A stretch of 64,000 nt of DNA. Origin: Clostridia bacterium (GTDB lineage: Bacteria; Bacillota; Clostridia; Oscillospirales; Acutalibacteraceae). Below are positions 1,435 through 48,727 of the stretch, in pieces. The position numbers were made by a program, and so were the translations under genes. The notes beneath the pieces were generated by a model. The model was not told where the DNA came from and ran no database searches. It saw only the letters and a list, made by a program, of their open reading frames with translations. The stretch lies in contig JAFQGI010000038.1 of the NCBI GenBank assembly GCA_017415515.1, positions 945 through 64,944 of the forward strand, given 5' to 3'. Positions within the stretch are counted from its first letter, which is position 1. Each line of letters begins with the position of its first letter.

Positions 1435-2814
1435 TCAGCCCAACTCCACCTCCCAACCATTAAGATATCGCTGCAACAGACCCAAGTCCTTGTTGTTGAC
1501 ACGGCCGTCGTCATTGACATCTGAAACACTTTCATTAACAACCACATCCCATCCGGTAAGATACTGTTGCAAGGCACTAATGTCTCTGTTATTTACATAA
1601 CCGTCACCATTAACATCACCACAAACACCCAACTCTTCCGGAACGTTTAATTCGTCGGTAGACACCCATCCCAACACGTAGTAATCCTTGCCCGTCATAG
1701 GCATAAATACCTGTGTCGCCCCATCGACCGATCCCACCAAATAGCACACATCGTCAGGATAAATACGGTAGGTTTTGTTGGATAAAGTGCTGGTTGAATA
1801 CAAATCTATGTATTCCTTAGCTACAAACGATACGAATTCCGCATTCGGATTGGAAACAAAATTCGATATCGGCGTATAGGCCGTCCTTGTTCCGCCTGAA
1901 TCCAACGGAAAGGTTACCTGACACCAGCCGTTGGTGTACACTTTATGGATGGTACAATAATCCGTTGTGTAAATCTCACCATAACGAGTCGTCAAGTCGC
2001 TTCTTTTTACCTCAAAATTGTTTGCCACACAAGGATACGCCTTAAATTCCGTAACAATATCATAGGCATCATCTTCGATCAAATTGGGATTCTCCGGCTC
2101 TCCGACATAAGCGTTGTTTCTTGTTACGATGCTGTATATTAAGTCACCATAAACCAAAAAGCCATCCGCATTGACGGATTCCTTGCTCACCGTCACCTTA
2201 CGTGCAACCGGCGGGGTCTGTTCGTAGATAACAAAGTGGGTCTCCGTCACCTCGCCCACCCAAACAATATGACTTCCCTTGGTGTTGCTTAAAGCGTCAC
2301 CCGCCTCAATATCGCACGCTTTCACGCCATAAGTAGTAGTTCCGTAAGGACTTCTTTGAATGGAGCCCACGTTGCAATAACGGGGGGCTTCCCCGTACAT
2401 AAAATCGCCTCCAAACACTTCGCTCACAAAATCTGCACAGCAAGAACCGTAAACAGGACCGGTCCGTACCGCATTGACCGAAGCACAGAAAGCAGTAGTT
2501 GAATAATTTGTTGTAGCTACCCTATCGTATTGAGCCAAAGAGCATAAACTCCAAGAAACAACCTCCGACGTGAACAGCGTATATGGAATACCCCTCACCG
2601 TCTCACCTTGAGGAAAGTACATTTTACCGTTGTAGGGATTTTCATTCCACACCGCAATATCTTGAGAGGGGATCCATTCATAATTGACCATCGCTTCAGC
2701 TCTTGCGCGCATTTCTTCCAGTGTCACCGTCGTCGCTGCAACATTCACAGCACTCATAGGCAACATCGTTGCCAATAAGAGCACGCTAAGCAAAGCAGCC
2801 AACACTTTTTTCAT
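1435..2814 (-). CDS. Secreted NlpC/P60-like (Cys/His) domain protein with SH3-like modules and a C-terminal dockerin-like double repeat
   Basis: Signal peptide MKKVLAALLSVLLLATMLPMSAVNVAA. YGSCCADFVSEVFG and KGSHIVWVGEV resemble NlpC/P60 Cys and His motifs. C-terminus is GDVNGDGYVNNRDISALQQYLTGWDV...DVNDDGRVNNKDLGLLQRYLNGWEV (two dockerin-type Ca-loop/helix segments). Lower G+C by eye than the rest of the window. Confidence 0.85.
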   Translation of the reverse strand: MKKVLAALLSVLLLATMLPMSAVNVAATTVTLEEMRARAEAMVNYEWIPSQDIAVWNENPYNGKMYFPQGETVRGIPYTLFTSEVVSWSLCSLAQYDRVATTNYSTTAFCASVNAVRTGPVYGSCCADFVSEVFGGDFMYGEAPRYCNVGSIQRSPYGTTTYGVKACDIEAGDALSNTKGSHIVWVGEVTETHFVIYEQTPPVARKVTVSKESVNADGFLVYGDLIYSIVTRNNAYVGEPENPNLIEDDAYDIVTEFKAYPCVANNFEVKRSDLTTRYGEIYTTDYCTIHKVYTNGWCQVTFPLDSGGTRTAYTPISNFVSNPNAEFVSFVAKEYIDLYSTSTLSNKTYRIYPDDVCYLVGSVDGATQVFMPMTGKDYYVLGWVSTDELNVPEELGVCGDVNGDGYVNNRDISALQQYLTGWDVVVNESVSDVNDDGRVNNKDLGLLQRYLNGWEVELG

Positions 2815-12422: not shown

Positions 12423-12430
12423 GCATAAAT

Positions 12431-12632: not shown

Positions 12633-12661
12633 TTTACATTAAAACGGCGGTGTGGTATAAT
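12633..12661 (+). promoter_or_regulatory. Strong sigma-A-type promoter with extended -10 (TTTACA-17 nt-TGgTATAAT)
   Basis: -35 at 12633-12638, TG at 12653-12654, -10 at 12656-12661. It lies immediately upstream of the 161-aa ORF. Confidence 0.55.
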
Positions 12662-12683
12662 GAAATAAAGCGAGGTGTGGTAA

Positions 12684-13169: not shown

Positions 13170-13204
13170 AAAAAATGCGGCACTAATTTAGTGCCGCATT
13201 TTTA
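13170..13204. terminator. Bidirectional terminator between the 161-aa ORF and spoVAC
   Basis: AAAAAATGCGGCAC-taattta-GTGCCGCATTTTT. Confidence 0.7.
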
Positions 13205-13206
13205 TA

Positions 13207-13650: not shown

Positions 13651-13692
13651 CCCCATCACTCCTTATCGGCGGTAGTGTACCCCAAAACCAAC

Positions 13693-13727
13693 AAAAAATG
13701 CCTGTGGCGATTGCCACAGGCATTTTT
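13693..13727 (-). terminator. Terminator after the GH38 gene, directly upstream of spoVAC
   Basis: ATGCCTGTGGC..GCCACAGGCAT hairpin flanked by A and T runs. Confidence 0.65.
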
Positions 13728-13733
13728 CATCTC

Positions 13734-16403: not shown

Positions 16404-16430
16404 ATATACACCTTCTTACTATGGCTTTAA

Positions 16431-16503
16431 AAAGCCTTCCCCTTGAGGGGAAGGTGTCTGCGAAGCAGACGGATGAGGTGTAGCCGCACAGCGGCGTTAT
16501 CCT
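16431..16503. repeat. Modular GC-rich multi-hairpin intergenic repeat (copy B)
   Basis: CCTTCCCC-ttga-GGGGAAGG, GTCTGC-gaa-GCAGAC, GATGAGGTGTAGCCG-cacag-CGGCGTTA. Its reverse complement matches 54721-54767 almost exactly. Confidence 0.65.
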
Positions 16504-16507
16504 TGAC

Positions 16508-16545
16508 AAAAAGGCGGCAAATCCCAATGGGACTTGCCGCCTTTT
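16508..16545 (-). terminator. Terminator after the GH94-like gene
   Basis: AAAAGGCGGCAA..TTGCCGCCTTTT hairpin. Confidence 0.6.
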
Positions 16546-16577
16546 GCGTATCAAATCTTAGCGGCTATACTCCGCAA

Positions 16578-18917: not shown

Positions 18918-21900
18918 TTATCGATAGCAGATAAAGGTCTTGATCTCAAAGGGCTTGAAGGTGACGTCCGCCACGCCGTCGGTTAGGGCGACGTCGGCAA
19001 AGGCCTCTTCCAGCATATTGGCTTCCTTGACGCACTTGACGTCAGCGGGGAAGGTCAGCTGAGTGACGGTGCGGGCACGCTCCGCCTCGTACAGACGCAC
19101 CACATAGGCGTTCTCGATGTCCTCGGCAGGCTTCACCGCCTCCACGATGACGTTGTCCGCATCCACCAGCACGGGGGCCGCCAACGCCTTGCCCAGCTTA
19201 CCGGGTGCCACGATGACGGGGGTGTTCAGTTCATAGGCGGGATACACCACGTTGGCCACGCAGAAGTCGCCGCAGTGGGGCAGGATGCTGTAAGTCATCT
19301 CGTGCACGCCGAAGTCGCCGGCAGGATCGGGGTGGGTACCGCCGCGATGCAGGGACAGGCGCATATCCGAGCCACGGACAGAAATGCCGTACTTGCAATC
19401 GTTGAGCATCGCCACACCGAAGCGGCTCTCGGAGATGTCGGTCCACTTCAGGTTGCACACCTCGAAGCGGGCGGTCTCCACGCAATCGTTCTCGGTGGTG
19501 GGACGCTCGATGTGACCAAACTGGATCTCGTGCTTCGCCTTGGTGGCCAGCACGTCCACGTCAAAGCTGACCTTGAGCAGCTGGTGCTTATCCTTCCAGT
19601 CCACCTTGGCGTGGAAGTCCACGCGGGGGCTGTCGGCGTAGAAGATGGTGTCCACAGCGATGGTGGAGTAGTTGCCGATCTTATAGGTGGAGCGCACACG
19701 CCACTCCACACAGCCATCGGACACGACCTTGCGGTCGATGAGCTGGGTCTGGGGACGCATCTTAAACTTCTGGTCGTACTCCACGTCCCAGTTGTCCCAA
19801 TATTCGGGGATATCCTCGCCCATATAGAAGGTGCCCAAGGGAGCGGCACCCTCGCGGCGGAGCTGACGCCCGCTCTGCTTGTCGATGAAGGAGGCAATGT
19901 AGCCGTTCTCGTCAAAGTCCACAGAAGCAAAGGGAGTCTCCAAATGCTTGCCGTCATAAGCAAAGACGGAAGCGCTATCGTCACACTTGTCGGTCAGCGC
20001 CACGCTCTTGGCCTCAAAGGCGCCCAGCGCTACGCCGCCCACCGCGATCTTCTTGCGGCCGAACAGGTCCTCATAGGGCTGGTTCTTGGCATCGGCAACG
20101 TACTTGCCGTTGTCGTCGATATGGATGACGTCCTCACGGTCGAAGGACAGGGGATTCACCAAAGTGATAGCGTTGTCACCCTCGGCCACGGTGGCGGCCA
20201 GGCGCTGGGTCTCGCCGTCCACGGTGACGATCAGCTCGCCCACGATCTTCTCGGAGCGATCGTGGACACACTGGATGCAGGTGCCGGGCAGAATGTCGTG
20301 GAACTGATTTTCCAGCAGCTCCTTCACCCACACGTCATAGTCGTGGGCGTCATACTCCGCACCGGTCATCACCGCCATCAGCTCCATGTTGCGCAGGGCA
20401 TTCTCGCACAGGCGGTTGTTGCGCTTGGTCTGGTGACGCTGGGTCAGGGTGCCGCGATGCAGCTCCAAATAGAGCTCGCCGTTATAGACCGGCATCTTGT
20501 CGTAGTTCTTCTCCATCTCCTGACCGAACTCGCTGATGGTCTGGTATTCCACCTTGGGCATACCGTTGATCTGCATCACACGGGTGGCTTCCTCCACCAT
20601 CACGTCGGTGGGGCCGCCGCCGCCGTCGCCGTAGCCAAAGGCCACCAGGCGGCTCTCGTCAGAGGTCTTATCCTGCAAGGCGGACACGTGGTTCATCAGC
20701 AGATGGGGTGCCGGCTCACAGTGGGTGATGTTAAAGTGGGTGATGACCTCGCTGCCATCGATACCCACCCAACGGAAGGTCTCAAAGGGGAATTTGTTAT
20801 GCTCGTTCCAGCTCAGCTTGGTGGTGTAGAAATACTTCATACCGCAACCGCGCATGATCTGGGGAATGGCGGCGTTATAGCCGAAAGTGTCTGGCAGCCA
20901 GAAGGAGTCGTTGGTGATGCCGAATTTCTCCTGCAGGTATTTCTGACCCTTCAGGAACTGGCGCACCATAAACTCACCGCCGGTGATGTTGCAGTCGCAC
21001 TCCACCCAAGCGCCGCCGTTGACCTCAAAGCGGCCCTCAGCCTGACGCTTCTTGATATCCTCAAAGATAGCGGGATAATGCTCCTCCATCCAGTAGGTGT
21101 GCAGGACGGAAGACTGGATAAACTTATAATCCGCATACTGATCCATCAGCACCAGCGCATTGGCAAAAGTACGGGCGCACTTGCGGATGGTCTCGGCGAT
21201 GGGCCACAGCCAAGCGGTGTCCATGTGGGAGTGACCCACGATGCCTACCTTGCCATAGGCGTCGCCGCAGGTCTGGCCGGTGAACATCTCGCTCATGATG
21301 GCGTTGCAGCGGCGCACGCCGGCGATCACCGTCTCGTAGTCCACCATGGTGGGGTGCAGCACCGCCTCAGCGAACACACGCTCCAGCATATTGATGGCGC
21401 GAGCCTTCAGGAACGGATTCTGATTAATCTGCGCCATAGACAGGAGGATACGCAGGTCGCGAATGAAATTCTTGATCTCCCAGTTGCAGGTCGCCACGTA
21501 CACGTTGTGGAAGGTGTGACGATAGTAGGAATCGGGCATAGCGTGCTCGCGGGCATAGGGGTGCACCTCACGCTCGTCGTGCCAGGCATAGCACTCCAAA
21601 TCGATGTGATAGGTCTTGCCGGCCTCGGCAGACTGGGTCAGCAGGATGTTGTGCTGCAAACCGTCATACTCCTTGATGATGGTGCCGTACATACCCATGG
21701 GTTTGCCGTCCACAAACAAGAGTCCTTCCCGCAATTCGGTGTTCTGCAGCACGAACAGCTCCTTGCCCTCCAGCTCGGCAGGGACGGTATAATCAAACTT
21801 CACCCATAGGTTGCCGTACTCGCCACCCCAGACGTAGCCGTCCTTGATGGTCTGATATTCGGCATCGGGAGCTTGACGGAAATGCTCCTTGGTCTCATAG

Positions 21901-22010
21901 CCCAGCACCTCGCTGAAAGTCTGCTCGGCGTGATAGACGTAGCCGGCATACTGCCAGGTCAGGTTCTGCAACTTTTTGAGCATACGATCGTTAAAGCTTT
22001 GATAATGCAT
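18918..22010 (-). CDS. GH38 alpha-mannosidase (large cytosolic class)
   Basis: GIVGHSHMDTAWLWP metal-binding motif. 1030 aa, no signal peptide. AAAGGAGGAG RBS. The stop abuts the start of the next gene. Confidence 0.9.
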   Translation of the reverse strand: MHYQSFNDRMLKKLQNLTWQYAGYVYHAEQTFSEVLGYETKEHFRQAPDAEYQTIKDGYVWGGEYGNLWVKFDYTVPAELEGKELFVLQNTELREGLLFVDGKPMGMYGTIIKEYDGLQHNILLTQSAEAGKTYHIDLECYAWHDEREVHPYAREHAMPDSYYRHTFHNVYVATCNWEIKNFIRDLRILLSMAQINQNPFLKARAINMLERVFAEAVLHPTMVDYETVIAGVRRCNAIMSEMFTGQTCGDAYGKVGIVGHSHMDTAWLWPIAETIRKCARTFANALVLMDQYADYKFIQSSVLHTYWMEEHYPAIFEDIKKRQAEGRFEVNGGAWVECDCNITGGEFMVRQFLKGQKYLQEKFGITNDSFWLPDTFGYNAAIPQIMRGCGMKYFYTTKLSWNEHNKFPFETFRWVGIDGSEVITHFNITHCEPAPHLLMNHVSALQDKTSDESRLVAFGYGDGGGGPTDVMVEEATRVMQINGMPKVEYQTISEFGQEMEKNYDKMPVYNGELYLELHRGTLTQRHQTKRNNRLCENALRNMELMAVMTGAEYDAHDYDVWVKELLENQFHDILPGTCIQCVHDRSEKIVGELIVTVDGETQRLAATVAEGDNAITLVNPLSFDREDVIHIDDNGKYVADAKNQPYEDLFGRKKIAVGGVALGAFEAKSVALTDKCDDSASVFAYDGKHLETPFASVDFDENGYIASFIDKQSGRQLRREGAAPLGTFYMGEDIPEYWDNWDVEYDQKFKMRPQTQLIDRKVVSDGCVEWRVRSTYKIGNYSTIAVDTIFYADSPRVDFHAKVDWKDKHQLLKVSFDVDVLATKAKHEIQFGHIERPTTENDCVETARFEVCNLKWTDISESRFGVAMLNDCKYGISVRGSDMRLSLHRGGTHPDPAGDFGVHEMTYSILPHCGDFCVANVVYPAYELNTPVIVAPGKLGKALAAPVLVDADNVIVEAVKPAEDIENAYVVRLYEAERARTVTQLTFPADVKCVKEANMLEEAFADVALTDGVADVTFKPFEIKTFICYR

Positions 22011-22288: not shown

Positions 22289-25150
22289 ATGAAAAGATTT
22301 TTCGCCATCTTAACGAGCATACTGCTGCTGTGCTCCGCCATTCCCCTCACCGCCCTCTCCGTCGCCGCCACCTCTGGCACCACCGGTGATTGCACCTGGA
22401 CGCTGGATGACAACGGCGTGCTCACGATCAGCGGTCAAGGAAAAATGGAGTCCTACAACACCTTCGGCACGCCCTGGGGCAAGGAAATCACCTCCGTTAT
22501 CGTTGAAGAAGGCGTTTCCTTTGTGGGCAAATACGCTTTTTACGATTGTCTCAACCTAACCTCCGTTTCGTTGCCCTCCACGCTTTCCGAGTTGGGCGAA
22601 GGCGCCTTTTACGGGTGCACCGGATTAACCGAGATCACGCTTCCCGACGGCTTACAAAGCAGCGGTTATTTTGCTTTCGCCAACTGCGCCAATCTCACCA
22701 CCGTCACCTTTGGCCAAGGTCTCCTTCGGGTGGAGGACAGCTCCTTCCGCGACTGTTCTTCTTTGACCACCGTCATTCTTCCCGACACCGTTTATTACAT
22801 AGAAAGCAACGCGTTTTCCGGCTGCGGCAAGCTGACCGAATTTCACGTCCCCGCCGGCCTGACCAATATCGGTTCCTTCGCGTTTAACAACTGCTCGTCA
22901 CTGAAACAATTCTCCATTCCGGACGGCGTGACTGCCATCCCCACCGCCGCCTTTGCCGGTTGTCGGTCTTTGGCGTCCGTCACGCTGCCGCAACAGCTGT
23001 CCACCATTGACACCCAAGCGTTTTACAACTGTTCAGCCTTAACCTCCATCGCCTTTCCTCCCACGCTGACCACAATAAACGGCGCTGCCTTTCAGAATTG
23101 TTCTTCTTTGACAGAGGTGGTCATACCCGGTTCCGTCACCGTTCTTTCCGGCGAGGTCTTTTCCGGTTGTTCCTCTGTGCAACGTGTAGTGTTCGAGCCT
23201 TATAGTGGCACCGACGAGGACCCCGGTCTGTATCTCGATCAAGGCATTTTCAGCTCTTGTTACGCATTACAAGAAGTGGTATGGGATCGACCAATAACCA
23301 GCATTCCCAATCGTCTGTTCAACGAATGCTCCTCCCTCTCCTCTATCGTGATTCCGGAGGGGGTCACCTCCATTGGCGAAAATGCTTTTGCTTATTGCAA
23401 CTCCCTGAACACCATACACATCCCCTCTTCCCTAACCATCATTAAGCGAGATGCCTTTCTCTTCGCAAATTCTCTGAACGACGTAAGCATCACCGATCTT
23501 TCCGCTTGGTGTTCCATCCGGTTTGAGAACAGCTCCTCTCAGCCCATGAGCGGAGGCAGTCTCTATCTCAACGGCGAAAAAGTCACCTGCATGGAAATTC
23601 CCGAAGACATCACCGCCATCCCCGCCTATTGCTTCTCTGACTGCAACGGTCTGCAGAAGGTGATCATGCACGACGGCATCACCTCTGTCGGTGCCTACGC
23701 TTTCGCATGGAATCAGCAATTGGAGGAGGTCGTGCTCTCTCGTCAATTATCGGTCATCGAAAGTCATACGTTCTACTTGTGTAACAAATTGGCCAAAGCA
23801 GATCTTCCCGAAGGCCTGTTGGAAATCCACGACTGCGCATTCACCGACTGTGCGTTCCCCTTCGTCATCATTCCTCACGGCGTTACTGCGATAGAAGAAG
23901 AGGCTTTTTCAAGTTGCGACAATGTGCGCTATCTGGTGTTGCCCAACACGGTGACTTCCATCGGTTACGATATGTTCGGCTATATCAACCACTTTAACGA
24001 CGTGTACTATCGCGGCACCGAAACAGATCGGGACGCGATTTCCATCAACACGCTCTCCAACGAGCGCCTGCTGGAAGCCACCTGGCATTATTCCACCTGC
24101 GCTATGAACGAGCACCTCTATTCCTCCGATTGCGATGCCTATTGCAACGCTTGCGATTGGGTGCGCGAGAGCGGCGACCACACCTACGATCACGCCTGTG
24201 ATCCCGACTGCAACCTCTGCGGCACCGTCCGCGAGGTGGAGCCCCACGCCTACGTGGACACCGTCACCACCCCCGCCACCTGCGTCACAGATGGTGTGAC
24301 GTCCTATGTTTGCTCCGTTTGCGGAGATACCTACACCACGGTTATCCCCGCCACCGGCGACCACGCCTACGATCACGCCTGTGATCCCGACTGCAACCTC
24401 TGCGGCACCGTCCGCGAGGTGGAGCCCCACGCCTACGTGGACACCGTCACCACCCCCGCCACCTGCGTCACGGATGGTGTGACGTCCTATGTTTGCTCCG
24501 TTTGCGGAGATACCTACACCACGGTTATCCCCGCCACCGGCGACCACGCCTACGACAGCGACCAAGATCCCTCTTGTAACGTCTGCGGCACCCTCCGTCA
24601 GATAACGTGCCCCGACACCGGTATCGTTATCGGCGGTGCCACCTTCCCCGCCGGCACCACCGTATCTGTAAAGAGAGTGGAGCCTATCGATCTCATTCCC
24701 CTTTTCGGCGAACTGATCGTGGTCTATGACATCTCTCTGAGCCTGGACAGCGTAAGCATTCAGCCCAGCGGTATGGTCTCCGTCACCTTGCCTATGCCGG
24801 AAAGCGCCGCACAATATACCGACCTGCACATCGTATATATTGACGAAAACGGTCATATGACCCTCTGCGAAACCACCGTCAACCCCGACGGAACACTCAC
24901 CTTCTTTACCGATCACTTCAGCCATTACGGTATCGTCGGCACTCCCCAGCCTTCCATCGTCTTTGGTGACGTGACCGGTGACGGCAAGATCAACAACAAA
25001 GACCTGGCTATGTTGCAGCAACATCTCAGCGATTGGGACGTGCCTATTGATGAACAGGCCGCCGATGTGACCGGTGACAACAAGATCAATAACAAAGACC
25101 TGGCCAAATTGCAGCAATATCTCAGCGATTGGGACGTTATCCTTGGCTAA
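22289..25150 (+). CDS. Secreted BspA-type leucine-rich-repeat protein with HC3 knuckle repeats and a C-terminal dockerin-like double repeat
   Basis: Signal peptide MKRFFAILTSILLLCSAIPLTALSVAA. About 20 LRR_5-type repeats (F..C..L..I.IP..V..IG..AF..C). Knuckles such as HTYDHACDPDCNLCGTVREV and PATCVTDGVTSYVCSVCGDTY. C-terminus GDVTGDGKINNKDLAMLQQHLSDWDV...DVTGDNKINNKDLAKLQQYLSDWDV. Confidence 0.9.
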   Translation: MKRFFAILTSILLLCSAIPLTALSVAATSGTTGDCTWTLDDNGVLTISGQGKMESYNTFGTPWGKEITSVIVEEGVSFVGKYAFYDCLNLTSVSLPSTLSELGEGAFYGCTGLTEITLPDGLQSSGYFAFANCANLTTVTFGQGLLRVEDSSFRDCSSLTTVILPDTVYYIESNAFSGCGKLTEFHVPAGLTNIGSFAFNNCSSLKQFSIPDGVTAIPTAAFAGCRSLASVTLPQQLSTIDTQAFYNCSALTSIAFPPTLTTINGAAFQNCSSLTEVVIPGSVTVLSGEVFSGCSSVQRVVFEPYSGTDEDPGLYLDQGIFSSCYALQEVVWDRPITSIPNRLFNECSSLSSIVIPEGVTSIGENAFAYCNSLNTIHIPSSLTIIKRDAFLFANSLNDVSITDLSAWCSIRFENSSSQPMSGGSLYLNGEKVTCMEIPEDITAIPAYCFSDCNGLQKVIMHDGITSVGAYAFAWNQQLEEVVLSRQLSVIESHTFYLCNKLAKADLPEGLLEIHDCAFTDCAFPFVIIPHGVTAIEEEAFSSCDNVRYLVLPNTVTSIGYDMFGYINHFNDVYYRGTETDRDAISINTLSNERLLEATWHYSTCAMNEHLYSSDCDAYCNACDWVRESGDHTYDHACDPDCNLCGTVREVEPHAYVDTVTTPATCVTDGVTSYVCSVCGDTYTTVIPATGDHAYDHACDPDCNLCGTVREVEPHAYVDTVTTPATCVTDGVTSYVCSVCGDTYTTVIPATGDHAYDSDQDPSCNVCGTLRQITCPDTGIVIGGATFPAGTTVSVKRVEPIDLIPLFGELIVVYDISLSLDSVSIQPSGMVSVTLPMPESAAQYTDLHIVYIDENGHMTLCETTVNPDGTLTFFTDHFSHYGIVGTPQPSIVFGDVTGDGKINNKDLAMLQQHLSDWDVPIDEQAADVTGDNKINNKDLAKLQQYLSDWDVILG
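24174..24558 (+). repeat. In-frame tandem duplication, 183-bp unit (2 near-identical copies plus the start of a third)
   Basis: TACGATCACGCCTGTGATCCCGAC starts at 24185 and again at 24368; the related TACGACAGCGAC starts at 24551. The two full copies differ at only a couple of positions, for example CACAGATGG versus CACGGATGG. Confidence 0.9.
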
Positions 25151-40044: not shown

Positions 40045-42594
40045 TTATTTACCGGCTGTGTTATAGCTCTTGCTGACGGAGTCGCCGTAGACCACAACTT
40101 CCTCACCGTCTACCTCAATCACGTAGTAGGGACGGGCAGTAACAACGGTATCCTTGCCTTTCTCAGGGATATCGATGATACGGATGGCAAAGGATACGAC
40201 ATCCGACCTCCATCCCCACAGATGCTTCGCTTCAATATTGATCACAGAAGCGTTGTCCACATTGTCCAGCTCCAACACCGCATCGGCTTGGTTGGACACC
40301 ACGGCGCCCATACGCACCACCTTGTAGCTCTCGCCACTGGCATAAGGCACCACGGAAGCCGAGTTCATCACGTACACGTTGCCGTTCTCCACCTGGCTGC
40401 CACTCACTTTCGCGTTAAAGAGGAAAGCCAGGCCATTCACATCCTCCGAGATGCTGGAGCCGGCATAGGCCATCACCTGCGCAATCTGACGGATGGCGTC
40501 GCAGTCATTGCAATCGGTATCGTTGCCGTTATCGTAGGTGTGATTACCCGTAGCGGCGACCGCCTCGGTATAGCTATTGCCACACACCGCACAGGTGTAG
40601 GTGCGCACGCCCTCCTTGACACAGGTGGGGGCGGTGGTAATCTGAGAGGTATATGCGTGATCCGCAGGCACACGGGTGGCACCGCACAGGTTGCATTCGG
40701 CATCGCAAGCGTTGTCGTACGCATGGGTACAGGGAGCCTTGGTGGCGGTGAAATAGTACAGCGTACCGCTGGCCCGCTTATACAGCGTCAAAGAGCCACC
40801 GGTGGTGGTGGAATAGCAAGCATAGCCATAGGTGCCGTTGCGGCGCAGATTGGCGTTGACACCGTCAGCCTTGTTGCCCACGTTGACAAATTCATAGGCG
40901 CCGTCGCCGGTGACCGTCCACTTACCATAGTCGGTGAGGGTGGTCAGCAAAGCCGCCTTGTTCTTGGTGCCGTTGCCGCCGGCATACGCATCGGCAGAGG
41001 CGTTGTACAGCGTCCAGTAGCTGCCGTTCTTGCCGATATGCCACACCGCGTTGGCGGCAGGATCTTGAATGGTGGCGGAGGTGGTGTCCACATCCACATA
41101 ATTGAAACGGGTGCCGGAGTTAATCTCCGCAATCAGCGCACCACCGTTGTGCACGATGAGATAATCGCCCTCGGTGATCGTACCACTGTAAGGCTCATAG
41201 GTGTTGTTATTCACCACGCCACCCTCTTCGCTACGGGCGTAGAGAGCGTAGAGAGTGACACCTGCAGATACGGTCCACGAGGCACCCGCCGCATAATAGG
41301 TGGGCTCGGTGGTGGTCTCGGTCACCTCGTAGGAGCACCAGCCCAGGAAGGTCTGACCCGCAGGAACAGAGCCGCTGTGGGCAGGCAGCGTGATGGCATC
41401 ACCGACATAGGCCGTTTGCGTGGAGCTGCTGCCCGTCTGCACAAACTGGACAGCCACCTGCTCCCGCTTACCAAAGTTGATGCGCACCGACACGTCGGAG
41501 GAAGGCGCCACGGTAAACTTGTTGCCGTTGCGGGTGACGGTGGCGGTACCGGACAGGATGGTATAACCGGTGGCTTCATAGCCGGTCTTGGGGCTGGCGG
41601 TGATGACGTTGCCGCTCACCGATACGGTGCCGTAATCGGAATTGCTGGTGGAGGCGGTGACGGTATAGCCCGCCGTAGCGCCCTCACCGGAGGGGGAATC
41701 GTAGCCCGCAGGCACCTCCTCGTCAAACAGCAGGAAGGCCAGCTCGGGATAGTCCACGAATACGTTGCGGGTGCCGGTGATGGACTCCACCGAGTCGTTA
41801 CGACCCAGCTCCCAGGTATCCACGGGGTCTTCCTCCATCCATTTGAGCAGGATTTCCTTACTCTCGATGACACCGGAGGAGCCCCACATATAATCCAAAG
41901 CGCCGTCAGCGTAGGAACTACCACCCCAGCAAACGTAGACGTACAGCACCACACGTGCCACGTCGCCGCGCACGCTCTGCCCCAGTTGGTCGGGGTCATA
42001 ATATTTACTGCCTTCACCGTAGGCGGTGTTGCTGCGGCCGGAGTTTTCGCTGACAGAGGCAGGGCGGAGCATCATAATATCGGTCTCACGCTGGGTGTTG
42101 CTGTCGCTGCCGCCGTTACTCTTACTGTTGGGCCAGGTGTGCTCGCGGTTCCAAGTCTTGCCGCTGTCCCAAGAGGGGCCAATGGCGTTGCCGGAATAGA
42201 ACGAGGAAATGGAGCCGCCATTGTTTTCGCAATCGGTATATTGGAACAAACTTCTGGTGGCGTCATAAGACGTGGGGTTATCCAAATTCCCATACATCAG
42301 GCTATGCAGCTCCTCATACAGCGAGCTATACGGGACGCTGCTGGTGGTGGACGAGCCGGACAGGGACGCCAACGCGGCGTATTCCACGCCATTGGTGTCA
42401 TAAAAATCCTCCGCCATGGGCGACAGGAAGGTGGCAAGCTCGTCACGCTCGCCCCAGTTGTAGACGTAGTTGCCGGAATACACGTAGTTGACCGTAGCCG
42501 CCCGAACGGGCACCACGATCAAGCTGGCAAAGACGCTGACCAACAGCATCAGGCTCGCCAACCACGCCAAAGAACGCTTAGTAAACCGTTTCAT
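40045..42594 (-). CDS. Secreted endonuclease I (EndA/Vvn family) fused to Listeria-Bacteroides-type repeats, HC3 knuckles and a conserved C-terminal domain
   Basis: Signal peptide MKRFTKRSLAWLASLMLLVSVFASLIVVPVRAA. Endonuclease I motifs NREHTWPNSKSNGG, DIMMLRPASVSENSGRSN, RGDVARVVLYVYV. FLGWCSYE repeat. CTHAYDNACDAECNLCG / PTCVKEGVRTYTCAVCGNSY / NHTYDNGNDTDCNDCDAIRQI. The last ~145 aa are homologous to the C-terminus of 8439..12422. Confidence 0.85.
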   Translation of the reverse strand: MKRFTKRSLAWLASLMLLVSVFASLIVVPVRAATVNYVYSGNYVYNWGERDELATFLSPMAEDFYDTNGVEYAALASLSGSSTTSSVPYSSLYEELHSLMYGNLDNPTSYDATRSLFQYTDCENNGGSISSFYSGNAIGPSWDSGKTWNREHTWPNSKSNGGSDSNTQRETDIMMLRPASVSENSGRSNTAYGEGSKYYDPDQLGQSVRGDVARVVLYVYVCWGGSSYADGALDYMWGSSGVIESKEILLKWMEEDPVDTWELGRNDSVESITGTRNVFVDYPELAFLLFDEEVPAGYDSPSGEGATAGYTVTASTSNSDYGTVSVSGNVITASPKTGYEATGYTILSGTATVTRNGNKFTVAPSSDVSVRINFGKREQVAVQFVQTGSSSTQTAYVGDAITLPAHSGSVPAGQTFLGWCSYEVTETTTEPTYYAAGASWTVSAGVTLYALYARSEEGGVVNNNTYEPYSGTITEGDYLIVHNGGALIAEINSGTRFNYVDVDTTSATIQDPAANAVWHIGKNGSYWTLYNASADAYAGGNGTKNKAALLTTLTDYGKWTVTGDGAYEFVNVGNKADGVNANLRRNGTYGYACYSTTTGGSLTLYKRASGTLYYFTATKAPCTHAYDNACDAECNLCGATRVPADHAYTSQITTAPTCVKEGVRTYTCAVCGNSYTEAVAATGNHTYDNGNDTDCNDCDAIRQIAQVMAYAGSSISEDVNGLAFLFNAKVSGSQVENGNVYVMNSASVVPYASGESYKVVRMGAVVSNQADAVLELDNVDNASVINIEAKHLWGWRSDVVSFAIRIIDIPEKGKDTVVTARPYYVIEVDGEEVVVYGDSVSKSYNTAGK

Positions 42595-42731: not shown

Positions 42732-44387
42732 TTATTTCAGCACAACGTCCCAATCAGCCAAATACTGCTGCAAGAGGGCCAGATCCTTGTTGTTGACCTT
42801 GCCGTCATCGTTGACGTCTGCCACGTGGGTGTCGATCGCCACGTCCCAGTCAGACAGATACTGCTGCAAGAGGGCCAAATCCTTGTTGTTCACCTTGCCG
42901 TCACCATTGGCGTCGCCGGGTATGACGACCTCACGCACCGCACCGCAGGTGTTGCAGTCCGCGTCCAAATCGTCGTCATAGCTGTGCCCGATAGCGGGAA
43001 TTGCCACCTGAGCGATCAGGATTTTGCCGCACACGGAACACTGCTCGCCGTCGGTGAGACCGTCCTCTTCACAGGTGGCGGCATAACCCTCCACCACCAC
43101 AGAGGAGTGCCCCAACGCTTCGGTGCGGTCCGACACGTAGCTGTCACCGCACACCGAGCAGGTGTGGGTGGTGTAGCCGCCATTCTCGCAATCGGGGGCG
43201 GTCACCACCGCGTTGTAGCTGTGGGTGATCTCGCGCTCCTCACCGCAAACGTTACAGGCGGCATCGCAAGCGTTGTCATACTTGTGCCCCAAGGCACTCG
43301 CCAATTCTTTGCCGCACACCACACAGGTCTGTGCGTTTTCGCAATCCGCCGCATCCCCGGCGGTGTGACCCAGAGCGGGCACGCGATTGTCCACGCAGCT
43401 ATAACCGCAGGTCAAGCAGGTGTGGGTGGTATAACCGCCGTTTTCGCAATCGGGGGCGGTGACTACAATATCGTACTCATGGCCCGGTGCGGTATCGATA
43501 TCCGTATAGCTGTCGCCGCAGCCGGAGCAAGTGTAGGTACGCGTGCCATCCGTCACGCAGGTGGGATCCACCTTGTCGATCAGGATATAATTGTGGGGTT
43601 CCACAGGTTCGCGGACGAGCCCGCATTTGTTACAATCGGCATCGCACACGCCGCTGTACGTATGATTACCGGTGGCAGGGATGATAACGTACTTGACCTT
43701 GCCGCAATCCCAGCATTTATAGCCATCCGAGCCATCCTCACCGCAGGTGGGCTCCACCGTGCCCATGAAGATATAATTGTGAGCATCCTCACGGATATAG
43801 CCGCAAACGTTGCAATCCTCATCGCAACCATACTCATAGGTATGCGTGCCGGTGGCGGGAAGCGGCTCGGTATAGCTGTCGCCGCAGGCGGAACAGACGT
43901 ACACCTTTTTGCCGTCTGCAATGCAGGTAGGGGCCACGTCTTCGGTCAGCTTATAATCGTGTCCCAGTGCATCCACGCGATTGTCCACATAGCTGTCGCC
44001 GCAGACCGTGCAGGTGTGGATGATATAGCCGCTGTTTTCACAATCGGGGACGATCTCGGTATCTTGGTAATTGTGGGCGGTCTCCCGCACATCGCCGCAG
44101 ACGTTGCAATCGGCGTCACAGGCGTTGTCATAGGTGTGGTCAGCCAAGGGCAACCGGGCATCAGAGCCCGCCACCACCAGACCGCACGCAACGCAGCGCT
44201 CATACGCACCGCATCCGGGAGTGGTGCAGGTGGATTCCACCGCCGCCACCGATTTGGTGGTGCTGTGGGTGCAGGCGTATTCTCCCCAGTTAAACTCATC
44301 GTCGTTGTAGCTCCCCGATGCGCTGACCATCGGCGCCGAGGTCATCAGCAACAACACAGACAAAACGATTGCCAAATACCGTTTCAT
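42732..44387 (-). CDS. Secreted protein made almost entirely of about 14 HC3 (HxY..C..CxxCG) knuckle units, with a C-terminal dockerin-like double repeat
   Basis: Signal peptide MKRYLAIVLSVLLLMTSAPMVSASG. Short units (HTYDNACDADCNVCGDVRE) alternate with long units (HDYKLTEDVAPTCIADGKKVYVCSACGDSY). C-terminus GDANGDGKVNNKDLALLQQYLSDWDV..DVNDDGKVNNKDLALLQQYLADWDV. Confidence 0.85.
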   Translation of the reverse strand: MKRYLAIVLSVLLLMTSAPMVSASGSYNDDEFNWGEYACTHSTTKSVAAVESTCTTPGCGAYERCVACGLVVAGSDARLPLADHTYDNACDADCNVCGDVRETAHNYQDTEIVPDCENSGYIIHTCTVCGDSYVDNRVDALGHDYKLTEDVAPTCIADGKKVYVCSACGDSYTEPLPATGTHTYEYGCDEDCNVCGYIREDAHNYIFMGTVEPTCGEDGSDGYKCWDCGKVKYVIIPATGNHTYSGVCDADCNKCGLVREPVEPHNYILIDKVDPTCVTDGTRTYTCSGCGDSYTDIDTAPGHEYDIVVTAPDCENGGYTTHTCLTCGYSCVDNRVPALGHTAGDAADCENAQTCVVCGKELASALGHKYDNACDAACNVCGEEREITHSYNAVVTAPDCENGGYTTHTCSVCGDSYVSDRTEALGHSSVVVEGYAATCEEDGLTDGEQCSVCGKILIAQVAIPAIGHSYDDDLDADCNTCGAVREVVIPGDANGDGKVNNKDLALLQQYLSDWDVAIDTHVADVNDDGKVNNKDLALLQQYLADWDVVLK

Positions 44388-44517: not shown

Positions 44518-47500
44518 TTAAGCCAATTCCACGTCCCAATCGGCCAGATACTGCTGCAGGAGAGCCAGGTCTTTGTTGTTGACCTTGCCGTCGCCATTGG
44601 CGTCGCCTGCCGCAGCGGTCTTATCGACGATCGTCACGCCGCCGTTCACAGCGTAGAACCATACGGTATCATCGGCAGCATTGAAAATGTCATTCACGCA
44701 GTCGAACTCGGGAACGATGTCGTACATCTCGCCCACCTGCGCACTTTCCAAAACCTCAAAGGTCAAAGTGGCCAGCATCTGCGCCGTCGAATTGGGCTGC
44801 GTAGCGTCACACCAGTTGACGATGAAATAGCCCTTCTCGTTGGCGGCGGCCACATCGCCCCAGGAATAGCCACCGGCGGAGAAGTTACCCGCCTCATAGC
44901 TCACCAACTTCAGCACCGTGTTGTCGAAGTGTACCTTCACCTTGACAGAGACGATACCGGGATTGTTATCCACCTGAATCTGGACTTTGACATTCTCGCC
45001 GACGGCACCCGTGTTGGTGGATGCCGCGATGCCGCCCACATACACAGGCTTCTCAGGCACTTCGCGGATGGCGCCGCACTCGTTACAGTCGGCGTCGTAC
45101 TCGTCGTCATAGACGTGGTCGCCCACCTCACGCAGCTCACCGCACAGGTTGCACTCGTCGTCGCAAGCGTTGTCATACTCGTGCTCGCAAGGCTCGACAG
45201 GGGGCTCCTCCTCGAAATAGTAGAACTCGCAGTAGAAGCCTTCATACTCCACCTTGCAGGGACCCACGGTGGTGTAGTTCTTATCGTTGCGGGTACCAAA
45301 CCAATAATCCGCACCGTTCACCTCGGCAATCAGAGTGCCGTACTCGGCATCGTAGCGATACACGGTAGAGGCGGTGTATTCATAGGCACCGTTGACGTGC
45401 TTACCGTCCTCGCTGACCACCATGTTGATGTACACCTTGTTATCTTCCACATCGTAGGTGTAGAAATAGTAGCCACCCTCGGTAGCCTCCACGTACACCA
45501 CGATGGCCTCATCGGGGTCGGTGGTGGTGTCCATATAGAAGCCGTTCATCTCGCCGTTGAGGAAGTAGACGTCCTCTTCGCTGACGTTGTACTGGGTCAT
45601 ACCGAACAGGAAGGGATAGTCGGTCTCGATCTCGTCAGAGACGGGAGGCTCCACGGGAGGATCCACGGGGGTCTCACCGCCACCCTCACCGGGGATGTGC
45701 GCCACGATCCAGCCGTTCTTGATCTGAGGGTTGCCGTTGTACTGACCCACCATACCGTAGATGGTGACGGTGTCACCGGCCACAGGCTTCACGTCCATGG
45801 CGTCGTAACGCTGCTCACCATCGGCACTGTAAGAGCCGTAGATGGTCAGGGTGTTACCCTCACCGTCAGTGATGTACATATTACCCCACTGGGTGTTGTA
45901 CACCTCGGTGATCACACCGGTCACATAGTACCAACCCGCGGTATACACATTGTGCTCCTTGGAAGCACCCAAAGCGATGGCCTCGGCGATGGTCAGCTCG
46001 GTGTCGGGCTCGGGATCCTCATTGGGCACGTCAGGATCCACGGGGTTCTCACCGCCGCCCTCACCGGTGTAGACGGTGATGGAATCCACACGCACCTGGG
46101 CTGCCAGCTCAGCGATCACAAACGTGTCGGCGGGAGCGGCCAAAATCACCGTCACCACGGTACCGTCCACAGAGACGGAGGCGTCGATGATCGAATCTGC
46201 CAGATCGGTGGCATAGGTATCCTTGTAGTCGTCGCAGTTGAACACGATCTGCGTCATACCGGGATACTCCACGGTAACCGTAGAGGACTTGTAGAAACGA
46301 ACGGGATAGCCGTCGCCGCCGTAGTCGCCCACGTTGCTGGTGGAAGCTCCCTTGTCATTGGTCACGGTGACGCCGTTCTGTGCCCACACCTGCTGAGAGG
46401 TGCTGTAGGACACACGGTTAGCCTTGTCACCAAAATCGATGGTAGCAGAGGAAGCAGGCTCCACGGGATCGACAGGCACCTCAGGATCCACGGGAGGCTC
46501 CTCAGGCTCCACGGGGGGCTCTTCGGGGTCAACGGGAGGCACCACAGAGCCGCCGCCCTCACCGTACACGGTGATGGAATCCACACGAACCTGGGCGGCC
46601 AGCTCGGCGATCACGAACGTATCGGCAGGAGCAACCAAAGTGACGGTCACCACGGTGCCGTCCACAGAGACGGAGCCCTCGGTGATGGAAGCCGCCAGAT
46701 CGGTGGCATAGGTATCCTTGTAGTCGTCGCAGTTGAACACGATCTGTGTCATGCCCTTGTAGTCCACGGTAACCGTAGAGGACTTGTAGAAACGAACGGG
46801 ATAGCCGTCGCCTCCGTAGTCACCCACGTTGCTGGTGGAAGCGCCCTTGTCGTTGGTCACGGTGACGCCGTTCTGTGCCCACACCTGCTGAGAGGTGCTG
46901 TAAGACACACGATTGGCCTTATCGGTGAAATCGAGGGTGGCAGAGCCGGTGGGCTCCGCAGGAACATCGGGCACCTCAGGGTCAACGGGAGGCTCCTCGG
47001 GATCCACGGGAGGTTCCTCGGGATCCACGGGAGGCACCACAGAGCCACCACCCTCACCATACACGGTGATGGAATCCACGCGCACCTGGGCTGCCAGCTC
47101 GACGATCACAAACGTGTCGGCGGGAGCAGCCAAAGTGACGGTCACCACGGTGCCGTCCACAGAGACGGAGCCATCGGTGATGGAAGCCGCCAGATCGGTG
47201 GCATAGGTATCCTTGTAGTCGTCGCAGTTGAACACGATCTGCGTCATGCCCTTGTAGTCCACGGTAACGGCAGAGCTCTTATAAAAGCGGACAGGATAGC
47301 CCTCGCCGCCATAGTCACCCACGTTAGAGGTGGATGCCGCTTTGTCGTTGGTCACAGTAATACCGTTCTGTGCCCACACCTGCTGAGAGGTGCTGTAAGA
47401 CACGCGGTTAGCCTTGTCACCAAAATCGATGGTGGCAGAATTGCCTTCGGCCGTTGCAGAGAAGGGGATGATGCTGCACAGCAGCAAAACCGCCAACAAC

Positions 47501-47526
47501 GCAGCGACCAGTTTGCGCATTTTCAT
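44518..47526 (-). CDS. Secreted multidomain protein: 3 tandem 165-aa domains, an OB-fold-like module, HC3 knuckles, a cohesin-like domain and a single dockerin-type segment
   Basis: Signal peptide MKMRKLVAALLAVLLLCSIIPFSATAEG. Triplicated DFGDKANRVSYSTSQQVWAQNG...VDSITVY units are joined by PVDPEEPP linkers. Then CEHEYDNACDDECNLCGELREVGDHVYDDEYDADCNECGAIREV. The cohesin-like stretch is GAVGENVKVQIQVDNNPGIVSVKVKVHFDNTVLKLVSYEAGNF...NGGVTIV. It ends with one copy of GDANGDGKVNNKDLALLQQYLADWDV. Confidence 0.85.
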   Translation of the reverse strand: MKMRKLVAALLAVLLLCSIIPFSATAEGNSATIDFGDKANRVSYSTSQQVWAQNGITVTNDKAASTSNVGDYGGEGYPVRFYKSSAVTVDYKGMTQIVFNCDDYKDTYATDLAASITDGSVSVDGTVVTVTLAAPADTFVIVELAAQVRVDSITVYGEGGGSVVPPVDPEEPPVDPEEPPVDPEVPDVPAEPTGSATLDFTDKANRVSYSTSQQVWAQNGVTVTNDKGASTSNVGDYGGDGYPVRFYKSSTVTVDYKGMTQIVFNCDDYKDTYATDLAASITEGSVSVDGTVVTVTLVAPADTFVIAELAAQVRVDSITVYGEGGGSVVPPVDPEEPPVEPEEPPVDPEVPVDPVEPASSATIDFGDKANRVSYSTSQQVWAQNGVTVTNDKGASTSNVGDYGGDGYPVRFYKSSTVTVEYPGMTQIVFNCDDYKDTYATDLADSIIDASVSVDGTVVTVILAAPADTFVIAELAAQVRVDSITVYTGEGGGENPVDPDVPNEDPEPDTELTIAEAIALGASKEHNVYTAGWYYVTGVITEVYNTQWGNMYITDGEGNTLTIYGSYSADGEQRYDAMDVKPVAGDTVTIYGMVGQYNGNPQIKNGWIVAHIPGEGGGETPVDPPVEPPVSDEIETDYPFLFGMTQYNVSEEDVYFLNGEMNGFYMDTTTDPDEAIVVYVEATEGGYYFYTYDVEDNKVYINMVVSEDGKHVNGAYEYTASTVYRYDAEYGTLIAEVNGADYWFGTRNDKNYTTVGPCKVEYEGFYCEFYYFEEEPPVEPCEHEYDNACDDECNLCGELREVGDHVYDDEYDADCNECGAIREVPEKPVYVGGIAASTNTGAVGENVKVQIQVDNNPGIVSVKVKVHFDNTVLKLVSYEAGNFSAGGYSWGDVAAANEKGYFIVNWCDATQPNSTAQMLATLTFEVLESAQVGEMYDIVPEFDCVNDIFNAADDTVWFYAVNGGVTIVDKTAAAGDANGDGKVNNKDLALLQQYLADWDVELA
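46069..47439 (-). repeat. In-frame tandem triplication, 495-bp period
   Basis: Equivalent codons (I/L-D-F of the DFGDKANRV motif) start at 47430, 46935 and 46440. VDSITVY ends at 47059 and 46069. The copies are highly similar at the DNA level over hundreds of bp. Confidence 0.9.
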
Positions 47527-47662: not shown

Positions 47663-48727
47663 TCAACTGTTTAGTAATCTTTGCAAAGCGCTCAAATCCC
47701 GGTTGTTCAGCTTGCCGTCACTGTTGACGTCGGCACCCGCCTCATTCACCGTCACCGGCCATTCATTGAGATATTTCTGCAAAAGTGCCAAATCCCGGTT
47801 GTTCAACTTGCCGTCGCCGTTAACGTCGCCGGCGGCTACGGGAGGCGCTACGTAGTAGGTGTTCACCAACCACGCCGATTCCTCCACGAAAGCTCCCTGC
47901 TGAATCGCCTCAAAAGGAGAATAGCGGGGAATGTACCAGCCCTGATCGGCGCCGTAGTATTGCATACACTTCGCCAGATCCACCGTCAGGTAATAATAAT
48001 TGCCATCCAGCGCATCGGCATAGTCTGCCATGGCGGTGACAAAGTCATAGCCTCTGGTCTCGGAATAGCGTCCGCGCATCACGTCAATGGGCGGCCACTC
48101 CTCCCCTTCCACGTCGTCGGGGTAGAACAGCTTATACAGATCGGTCCACACGCTGGCCCGCAGATCCACGTAGACGATGGGGCCGCCCACGTGACCGTAG
48201 TGATAGATGCCGTCGGCATCCGCCACCACCGTTTGGGGCTTGGTGATGTCGATGGCGGTGAGCTTCTCACTCGTCATACAGAAGGCATAGTCGATCTCAT
48301 GGCGGTTGTGATAGGTGATATAGGTCACCTTGGTGGGTGCCACGTAATCGTTCTGCTTTTCAATGGTGATGGTGGCGGAGGAGACCCCCGACAGACCGAT
48401 CAGCAGGCTCTGTCCCACAGCGTGACAGGTGACGGTGATCGCACCGTCCACCGCGTCATAGGCGGGCACAGACACGTATTGGGAAGACCCGTACCAAAAA
48501 TTGAGCACGGCATCGGGATCCTCCACCGCCACGCGATAGTTGCCCACCGCCGTGGGCTTAAACTTGAAAATGGTGGTGGTATCCGCATCGGCGGTCACCC
48601 GATTGGTGCCCACCTGCAGGCGGATGTCGGAAACGGTATACTCCGCGGCGGCGGTCACCGTCATTCCGGTGCACAGCAACACCAGCGACAGCACAACACA
48701 CAGCAGAGAACGAACGGACTTGCTCAT
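47663..48727 (-). CDS. Secreted protein of unknown function with a C-terminal dockerin-like double repeat
   Basis: The ATG at 48727 lies 6 nt after GAGG and gives MSKSVRSLLCVVLSLVLLCTGMTVTAAAE (signal peptide). C-terminus GDVNGDGKLNNRDLALLQKYLNEWPV..DVNSDGKLNNRDLSALQRLL. It starts 33 nt after the ddl stop with no terminator between. Confidence 0.8.
   Translation of the reverse strand: MSKSVRSLLCVVLSLVLLCTGMTVTAAAEYTVSDIRLQVGTNRVTADADTTTIFKFKPTAVGNYRVAVEDPDAVLNFWYGSSQYVSVPAYDAVDGAITVTCHAVGQSLLIGLSGVSSATITIEKQNDYVAPTKVTYITYHNRHEIDYAFCMTSEKLTAIDITKPQTVVADADGIYHYGHVGGPIVYVDLRASVWTDLYKLFYPDDVEGEEWPPIDVMRGRYSETRGYDFVTAMADYADALDGNYYYLTVDLAKCMQYYGADQGWYIPRYSPFEAIQQGAFVEESAWLVNTYYVAPPVAAGDVNGDGKLNNRDLALLQKYLNEWPVTVNEAGADVNSDGKLNNRDLSALQRLLNS

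Follow-up and report, generated by a model that had tools for sequence, protein, structure and literature searches.

Can a dockerin that consists of a single calcium-binding repeat be taken at face value? The question is raised by gene 44518..47526 in a stretch of DNA of 64,000 nucleotides (nt; hereafter the window, 64 kb) from contig JAFQGI010000038.1 of assembly GCA_017415515.1 (positions 945 to 64,944), the metagenome-assembled genome (MAG) of a Clostridia bacterium. The genome relatives of the window are Acutalibacteraceae MAGs and its source is the ruminant gut. The product of the gene, an exact match of NCBI MBQ3203307.1, ends with a cohesin that is followed by half a dockerin. A first-pass annotation, made from the letters of the window, read this as a non-cellulolytic cohesin-dockerin surface assembly and singled out the half dockerin as structurally unusual. 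The chances appear to us about even that the protein belongs, as a monovalent adaptor scaffoldin with a payload, to the Ruminococcus bromii Amy4/Sca1 type, comes from an uncultured ruminant-gut member of the Acutalibacteraceae and has a dockerin allele that arose by a very recent deletion through slippage or recombination. The evidence on its cohesin, its dockerin and its payload is presented in this order, followed by the comparison with known systems and the alternatives; the coordinates of all features are collected in Table 1.

The cohesin and its cassette

Profile matches and structural modelling agree that the cohesin is real, as proposed in the first-pass annotation together with a check against the respective Pfam hidden Markov model (HMM). 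PF00963 (Cohesin) matches residues 836-936 with an E-value of 4e-10 and a score of 40.5 bits, the cutoff being 24.1. The AlphaFold model of residues 824-1002, computed with 32 homologous tails, shows a beta-sandwich followed by one helix, at a mean predicted local distance difference test score (pLDDT) of 92.1 and a predicted template modelling score (pTM) of 0.79. When this model was compared with the PDB using Foldseek, the top 50 matches were all cohesins (E-values down to 5e-11, target-normalised template modelling scores of 0.76-0.83), the best being Ruminococcus flavefaciens ScaC (5lxv), so that model and matches alike agree with the nine-stranded jelly-roll beta-sandwich of solved cohesins. 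A sequence profile search of the PDB returned type-I-like cohesins and dockerins, and NCBIfam yielded only dockerin-driven partial matches to CelK, which are uninformative. The ratio of nonsynonymous to synonymous substitution rates in the cohesin is 0.04-0.21, from small counts, and no decay is seen.

One dockerin repeat begins seven residues after the cohesin, and the carrier of the cohesin is thus itself dockerin-tagged, as claimed at first pass. A signal peptide, a single cohesin and a single, halved dockerin give the protein the class features of a monovalent adaptor scaffoldin. No second cohesin was detected in the window with the family HMM in all six frames or with Pfam on the ten largest other open reading frames (ORFs); a stretch of ~110 amino acids (aa) that separates the knuckles from the dockerin in the leucine-rich repeat (LRR) protein 22289..25150, considered as a candidate, is not a cohesin of this family.

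The cohesin-dockerin pair forms a cassette that is widespread among relatives of the protein. Throughout the 46 homologues that bear a cohesin, the dockerin begins 5-12 residues after it, and in 44 of them two repeats follow the cohesin directly, the exceptions being P0011 and P0066; the latter, of 1362 aa, shares the payload domain and has, besides three cohesins, knuckles and a dockerin. Most homologues have the cassette at the C-terminus and six have it at the N-terminus, right after the signal peptide, and 24 relatives of the payload that lack a cohesin carry in its place a sortase-type tail (SPxTGD, a transmembrane segment and KKRA). When 1.84 billion cluster representatives were searched with a profile, 2,090 proteins reached E<=1e-30; among the ~360 cohesins of the best 150 representatives, ~90 have a two-repeat dockerin directly behind them, and a true single repeat follows none. 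Nine 'singles' that a regular expression had picked out among these 150 all turned out to be two-repeat dockerins or no dockerins at all, and P0029 and P0048, also considered as one-repeat cassettes, have two repeats each. P0164 and P0185 combine an N-terminal cohesin with an SPxTGD sortase tail and are anchors of this cohesin family. Judging from these architectures, related organisms possess both anchors and multi-cohesin scaffoldins with this type of cohesin.

A single repeat and a gap of 96 nt

The single segment reported at first pass is indeed single. PF00404 (Dockerin_1) covers residues 966-994 of the protein with profile positions 28-56 of 57 only (23.0 bits, cutoff 22.9), and translation in all three frames around and after the stop codon reveals no hidden second repeat. 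The four other dockerin genes of the window, described as two-repeat in the first-pass annotation, all match the full Dockerin_1 profile (E-values from 2e-14 to 9e-13). Given that no frame past the stop contains a repeat, and that the gap downstream is filled by a hairpin and, beyond it, by the near-consensus promoter (11/12) of the next gene, a frameshift can be excluded. A scan for consensus terminators called no canonical intrinsic terminator at this hairpin, the U-tail of which is weak. The earlier proviso that the single segment might be a frameshift or assembly artefact therefore falls for its frameshift part; its assembly part is kept live, in the form of a collapse, by a 96-nt block that is present in contigs otherwise 100% identical.

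When the DNA is aligned with two-repeat alleles, exactly 96 nt are missing from the window, in frame, between near-identical repeat-coding copies; the surviving repeat is a hybrid in which the beginning of repeat 1 is joined to the remainder of repeat 2. The gap is bounded by two perfect direct repeats of 65 nt which are the dockerin repeats themselves and recur with a period of 96 nt in contigs L011 and L012. Between them, the two-repeat allele holds the 31-nt block CGATCGACGAGGATGTCGTTGACGTGAACAA; a one-repeat junction would join GCAGGCGACGCCAATGGCGAC... directly to ...GTGGAATTGGCTTAA inside one repeat. The hybrid keeps the calcium ligands at positions 1, 3, 5 and 12 (D-A-N-G-D-G-K-V-N-N-K-D, followed by LALLQQYLADW) and the whole recognition helix, which AlphaFold places at residues 984-994. 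The parent dockerin is symmetric: its two repeats share every residue from position 5 to 25, including N-K at recognition positions 10/11, and at the sequence level such symmetry is the signature of dual-binding-mode dockerins.

Over ~11 kb, the locus in the window matches L011 and L012 at 100.000% identity, without a single mismatch besides the 96-nt block, and it is in these twins that the two tandem calcium-binding repeats of ~22 residues are found which gene 44518..47526 lacks. L006 and L013 form another such pair, a one-repeat and a two-repeat twin of a second haplotype that are likewise 100.000% identical. P0011 is the second one-repeat sequence, and each of the two has a two-repeat counterpart of the same haplotype in the cluster listing (P0273 for the window, P0276 for P0011). 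Two repeats are also present at the end of the closest orthologues, P0009 (96% identity) and P0010 (89%). An old, shared deletion, suggested by the divergence of ~2-3% between the two one-repeat alleles, was dropped as an explanation, each of them being 100% identical to its two-repeat twin. Whether the gap is a real allele or an assembly collapse, two repeats are the ancestral condition of this dockerin and the predominant one. The haplotypes with one-repeat forms have exact direct repeats of 65 nt and 60 nt, those that are two-repeat in every assembly have 34 nt and 30 nt, and the exact direct repeat of the remaining four dockerin genes in the window measures 7-20 nt.

The half dockerin cannot, then, be upheld as an unusual structural feature, as the first-pass annotation would have it: 44 of 46 homologues and the ~90 cassettes from the wider search are two-repeat, and single-repeat dockerins are already known.

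A separate observation concerns codon 6 of the calcium loop of repeat 1 (window 44587-44589), which is GGC (Gly), GAC (Asp) or AGC (Ser) across strains that are otherwise 96-99% identical, the matching position in repeat 2 being always Gly. Three residues at a normally invariant glycine of the EF-hand suggest relaxed or diversifying selection on repeat 1.

The payload and a possible link to nucleic acids

The N-terminal part of the protein consists of three copies of a ~135-aa domain connected by PVDPEEPP linkers, an OB-fold module and a further module of ~150 aa. The OB-like module recognised at first pass is corroborated by PF01336 in close homologues (1e-19 in P0053 and 3e-11 in P0015; 0.17 in the product of 44518..47526) and by Foldseek matches to the anticodon-binding OB domains of LysRS and to RPA32, at a probability of 1.0. 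Copy 3 of the triplicated domain and the ~150-aa module are modelled with pLDDT values of >90 and 84-95, respectively, and Foldseek found no meaningful PDB fold match for either; matches to BoNT/NTNHA and lysenin had a high root-mean-square deviation, involved multi-domain proteins and were judged meaningless. The haplotype of L006 and L013 (alleles P0011 and P0276) lacks the whole OB module, 126 aa corresponding to window 45640-46017, through an in-frame deletion between ~20-nt repeats that encode GEGGG linkers.

Together, the triplicated domain, the OB fold and the ~150-aa module are probably a ligand-binding arm. Given the OB fold, the architecture of P0101 (1505 aa, NCBI MAG), in which Endonuclease I is fused to multiple copies of the triplicated domain, to the 150-aa module and its knuckles and to a dockerin, and the synteny of an Endonuclease I gene with the adaptor gene, the ligand is possibly extracellular DNA or another nucleic acid. 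Pfam detects no nuclease catalytic domain in the product of 44518..47526, which thus shares a nucleic-acid-type OB fold with the YhcR-like OB-fold extracellular nucleases but lacks their catalytic domain in the same protein.

An adaptor of a known kind

GTDB assigns R. bromii (Ruminococcus_E) to the Acutalibacteraceae. The Amy4/Sca1 protein of this bacterium ends with a cohesin followed by a dockerin, and its cohesin binds its own dockerin as well as those of other proteins (PMC4611034). The protein described here resembles it as a large secreted protein of a non-cellulolytic organism with an N-terminal payload and a C-terminal cohesin-dockerin pair, and the dockerin-bearing partners in the Amy4/Sca1 system include LRR proteins, peptidases and proteins of unknown kind (PMC4611034). 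The two differ in that the payload here consists of an OB fold and beta domains of unknown kind instead of a GH13 amylase, and in the one-repeat dockerin of the window contig. Nor are the sequences close, the R. bromii dockerins being only weak PDB matches (9qfa, 9qf9).

The literature recognises a class of monovalent adaptor scaffoldins, which combine a single cohesin with a single dockerin and frequently carry an N-terminal payload; it includes R. flavefaciens ScaC and 28 cohesin-dockerin adaptors of P. guangzhouensis (PMC11557425). Gene 44518..47526 shares with them the combination of one cohesin and one dockerin, the ScaC cohesin (5lxv) being its best structural match, and departs from them in the linker of its cassette, which is only 5-12 residues long across the homologues, and in a payload that is not a carbohydrate-active enzyme (CAZyme). 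Non-cellulolytic cohesin-dockerin systems have, moreover, already been published for the Acutalibacteraceae, namely the amylosome and the Limousia mucinolysome (PMC12997984). The latter is directed at mucin and includes a sortase-anchored cohesin protein (PMC12997984); like the bacterium studied here, it belongs to animal-gut Acutalibacteraceae and non-plant substrates, the window also containing host-glycan genes (two GH38 genes and a SASA esterase). Unlike these two systems, the 64-kb window encodes neither a CAZyme or peptidase with a dockerin nor a scaffoldin with multiple cohesins. Both the architecture of the gene and its non-cellulolytic context are thus of kinds already known. The non-cellulolytic assembly proposed at first pass accordingly stands as far as a real cohesin on a dockerin-tagged carrier is concerned and fails as something unusual, the layout being shared with Amy4/Sca1 and the monovalent adaptors.

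By analogy with these systems, the C-terminal dockerin would plug the protein into a partner cohesin, either a sortase-anchored one or that of a second copy of the same protein, and its own cohesin would capture a dockerin-tagged neighbour, the dockerins sharing N-K/N-R recognition residues. The payload arm would then bind its ligand, possibly extracellular DNA. Slippage or recombination between the 65-nt repeats would drop 96 nt and leave the hybrid single repeat.

Real allele, assembly collapse or functional module

Two explanations of the gap compete. It may be a real and very recent deletion, recurrent through replication slippage or recombination and present as a subpopulation allele, an explanation that we credit with an even chance or marginally better. 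Alternatively, the organism may have a two-repeat dockerin only, and MEGAHIT-type assemblies may have lost one 96-nt period of the perfect 60-65-nt tandem repeat; such a collapse is a serious possibility, although we rate it somewhat short of even, and under it the half dockerin would be absent from nature and the adaptor scaffoldin unaffected. Several observations weigh against a deletion allele in an adaptor scaffoldin. The twins are 100.000% identical over ~11 kb besides the 96-nt block in two separate haplotypes. Both one-repeat contigs with visible names are labelled 'k141_' (MEGAHIT), the source study of the NCBI MAG used MEGAHIT 1.1.1, and the identical twins from another pipeline ('scaffold_' and 'NODE_' contigs) are all two-repeat, as would be expected if a collapse were specific to one pipeline. 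The one-repeat form occurs only on haplotypes with an exact repeat of at least 60 nt, a threshold just above the k=59 step of the default k list of MEGAHIT; the two-repeat protein P0273 is found on 7 contigs and the one-repeat version of the same haplotype on 2; and no further one-repeat cassette was seen among >130 examined. The Pfam score of the single repeat is marginal, no partner cohesin or multi-cohesin scaffoldin was found in the window by the family HMM or by Pfam on the ten largest other ORFs, and the DNA-binding role of the payload rests on fold and on gene and domain association, which is not proof. That repeats of this kind do mislead assemblers is indicated by P0005, a 124-aa protein from a Logan contig of 984 nt, in which a signal peptide is followed by three dockerin repeats; the last two of these are the C-terminus of 42732..44387 and the N-terminus is that of P0007, so that P0005 is probably a chimeric contig fused via the shared repeat and a warning on assemblies at these repeats.

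On the side of a real allele, the one-repeat protein is present on two contigs of different size, 87 kb (ENA) and 110 kb (NCBI MAG), and MEGAHIT correctly resolved two repeats in L003. Deletion mediated by repeats is, furthermore, a genuine process in this gene, since the in-frame loss of the OB module is present in both twin assemblies and hence is itself real. We also reason that a contig assembled at k=141 in a de Bruijn graph should, in principle, hold only junctions backed by reads, and that a repeat of 65 nt should be resolvable at k>=79 with 150-nt reads; both arguments speak against a collapse. The frequency of deletion between direct repeats grows with the length of the exact repeat, and for this reason the restriction of the one-repeat form to long repeats discriminates between neither explanation. 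Two pattern scans of Joint Genome Institute (JGI) metagenomes found no contig of this species. In our own judgement, the real subpopulation allele is slightly more likely than the collapse.

Should the allele be real, the hybrid repeat could still bind a cohesin, perhaps more weakly or with two copies per cohesin, because the calcium ligands and the whole recognition helix of the symmetric parent are kept. Natural and functional single-repeat dockerins, two of which are bound per cohesin, are known from group 2 of R. flavefaciens (PMC12270676), first described in PMC2930009, where one is located on a cohesin-bearing, adaptor-like protein and another on an LRR protein (PMC12270676; PMC2930009). 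Engineered half-dockerins derived, like the repeat described here, from symmetric two-repeat parents have affinities that range from that of the wild type to none: wild-type affinity was kept by the N-terminal half of the C. thermocellum dockerin and the C-terminal half of the B. cellulosolvens dockerin, the A. cellulolyticus half-dockerin lost affinity 100-fold, and the halves of the closest full-length dockerin of R. flavefaciens did not bind (PMC12270676). These engineered proteins are clean N- or C-terminal halves, whereas the hybrid repeat of 44518..47526 joins the loop start of repeat 1 to the remaining part of repeat 2.

The single repeat might even be an evolved module, selected and stable like those of group 2, that binds with two copies per cohesin and defines a distinct mode of adaptor assembly. 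The existence of functional group-2 dockerins, one of them on a cohesin-bearing protein (PMC12270676; PMC2930009), the position of a single calcium-binding repeat at the extreme C-terminus in both cases, the retention of all calcium ligands and the recognition helix, and the lack of cohesin decay fit this idea, which we nevertheless consider very improbable. Zero divergence from the two-repeat twins leaves no time for adaptation, and for this reason the one-repeat state is not to be regarded as an evolved module. Group-2 dockerins are ~40 aa long, are stabilised in their two-dockerin arrangement by an additional helix 4 together with a Phe clasp at the N-terminus, and are stable features of their genomes (PMC12270676); the repeat of 44518..47526 comprises 29 aa, lacks this extra C-terminal helix and the Phe clasp, and has only the seven residues DWDVELA after its helix and no Phe before the loop. 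Nor is its single-repeat state stable or inherited, given that the orthologues and the identical-strain twins are two-repeat and that a single repeat is conserved in no orthologue or other cassette; the failure of the engineered halves of the closest full-length R. flavefaciens dockerin to bind (PMC12270676) is a further argument against an evolved module. Another possibility, somewhat less remote but still improbable, is that the cassette caps itself: the cohesin and the adjacent dockerin would bind to each other within one molecule as a structural or regulatory cap, and loss of a repeat would open the cohesin. The very short linker conserved in every cassette (5-12 residues), the pLDDT of 84-94 for the dockerin helix and the pTM of 0.79 in the single-chain model, and the recognition of its own dockerin by the Amy4 cohesin of R. 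bromii (PMC4611034) are compatible with such a cap. The authors of the Amy4 study, however, read this self-recognition as intermolecular multimerisation (PMC4611034), and a linker of 5-8 residues may be too short for the dockerin to reach the binding face. A deletion allele in an ordinary adaptor scaffoldin remains our preferred explanation. One extension of it, which appears unlikely, although less so than a self-capping cassette, is that the one-repeat allele recurs by slippage between identical repeats and still binds, and thereby switches, in one direction only, the valency or the anchoring strength of a possibly DNA-binding adaptor.

Features of the gene and related proteins of the window

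Table 1. Modules of gene 44518..47526, adjoining sequence elements, and other dockerin or knuckle proteins of the window
Feature	Residues	Coordinates	Strand	Basis or remark
Whole gene, intact ORF of 1002 codons; secreted modular protein	1-1002 (1002 aa)	44518..47526	(-)	ORF list
Signal peptide, MKMRKLVAALLAVLLLCSIIPFSATA	1-26	47449..47526	(-)	read off sequence; kept in all alleles
~135-aa beta-rich domain, three in tandem	27-165, 195-335, 360-487	46066..47448	(-)	internal repeats
OB-fold module, nucleic-acid-binding type	505-612	45691..46014	(-)	PF01336 in homologues and Foldseek
~150-aa beta-rich module	630-775	45202..45639	(-)	conserved in homologues
Two Cys/His 'knuckle' mini-modules, H-x-Y-D-x3-D-x2-C-x2-C-G	780-822	45061..45189	(-)	motif scan
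Cohesin module	~831-966	44629..45036	(-)	PF00963, AlphaFold, Foldseek
Single dockerin repeat, GDANGDGKVNNKDLALLQQYLADWDVELA	974-1002	44521..44607	(-)	PF00404 partial match and DNA alignment
65-nt deletion/collapse junction sequence		44544..44608	(-)	present twice in L011 and L012; overlap of blastn high-scoring segment pairs and exact-repeat measurement
GC-rich hairpin, 14-bp stem, directly after stop codon		44474..44502	(-)	-27.6 kcal/mol, z -7.6
Signal peptide, at least 5 knuckles, full two-repeat dockerin 89% identical to the repeat of 44518..47526		42732..44387	(-)	Pfam, motif scan
~300-aa domain of unknown kind and full dockerin		47663..48727	(-)	Pfam
BspA-type LRR, 4 knuckles, full dockerin		22289..25150	(+)	Pfam, motif scan
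~370-aa N-terminal region of unknown kind and full dockerin		1435..2814	(-)	Pfam
Secreted Endonuclease I protein, 2 knuckles, no dockerin		40045..42594	(-)	syntenic with the adaptor gene in all strains

No CAZyme payload is recognisable on any of the five dockerin proteins, in agreement with the first-pass annotation. Among the payloads that it had named, the BspA-type LRRs of 22289..25150 are confirmed by Pfam (LRR_5, E-value 6e-144) and the 'HC3 knuckles' by a scan for the motif H-x-Y-D-x3-D-x2-C-x2-C; the label NlpC/P60-like for 1435..2814 has to be withdrawn, as that protein has no Pfam match even at E<=10 and no PDB sequence match.

The knuckle motif occurs in five secreted proteins of the window, with two copies at 45061-45189, five in 42732-44387, four in 22289-25150, two in 40045-42594 and one in 8370-12422. 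It corresponds to no Pfam family and is always located just upstream of a C-terminal module, be it cohesin-dockerin, dockerin or another, and it looks like a metal-binding spacer. The neighbour 42732..44387 encodes 551 aa in the haplotype of the window and 627 aa in others (L004, L006 and L013); the difference is copy-number variation of knuckle repeats and agrees between twin assemblies. The protein encoded at 8370-12422, an ORF of 1350 aa with an apparent signal peptide and one knuckle, has no Pfam match at E<=0.001 and only a weak one to Big_14. Its C-terminal beta-rich module of ~150 aa (12000-12422) is common to the Endonuclease I protein (40045-40560), at 33% identity and an E-value of 1e-29. 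This shared module sits after the knuckles, in the place that the dockerin has in other proteins, and the end of P0092 is similar; the shared module may represent a third type of attachment module at the C-terminus.

Farther away, a cluster of glycan genes at window 3689-22010 encodes a SASA-type sialate O-acetylesterase, two GH38 alpha-mannosidases and a GH94 phosphorylase (GH, glycoside hydrolase), none with a dockerin. Its content suggests the use of host glycans or N-glycans.

Implications

The main value of this analysis is a correction: the cohesin-dockerin adaptor encoded by gene 44518..47526 is ordinary for its bacterial family, and its half dockerin is not to be read as a new structural module without proof at the level of reads. 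If the deletion is real, perfectly symmetric dockerins would be genetically unstable and open to conversion into single-repeat forms in one step, which would be relevant to how truncated dockerins originate and to efforts to design short ones. The 2025 paper on group-2 dockerins left the origin of truncated single-repeat dockerins open, and a one-repeat allele that recurs and binds would, if true, be the first direct natural example of a single-repeat dockerin arising from a symmetric two-repeat one. We know of no earlier description of a role of cohesin-dockerin assemblies in dealing with extracellular nucleic acids. The cohesin-dockerin cassette on an Endonuclease I-associated OB-fold payload, found here and in many other uncultured Clostridia, is a hint that such assemblies may organise the binding or degradation of nucleic acids outside the cell.

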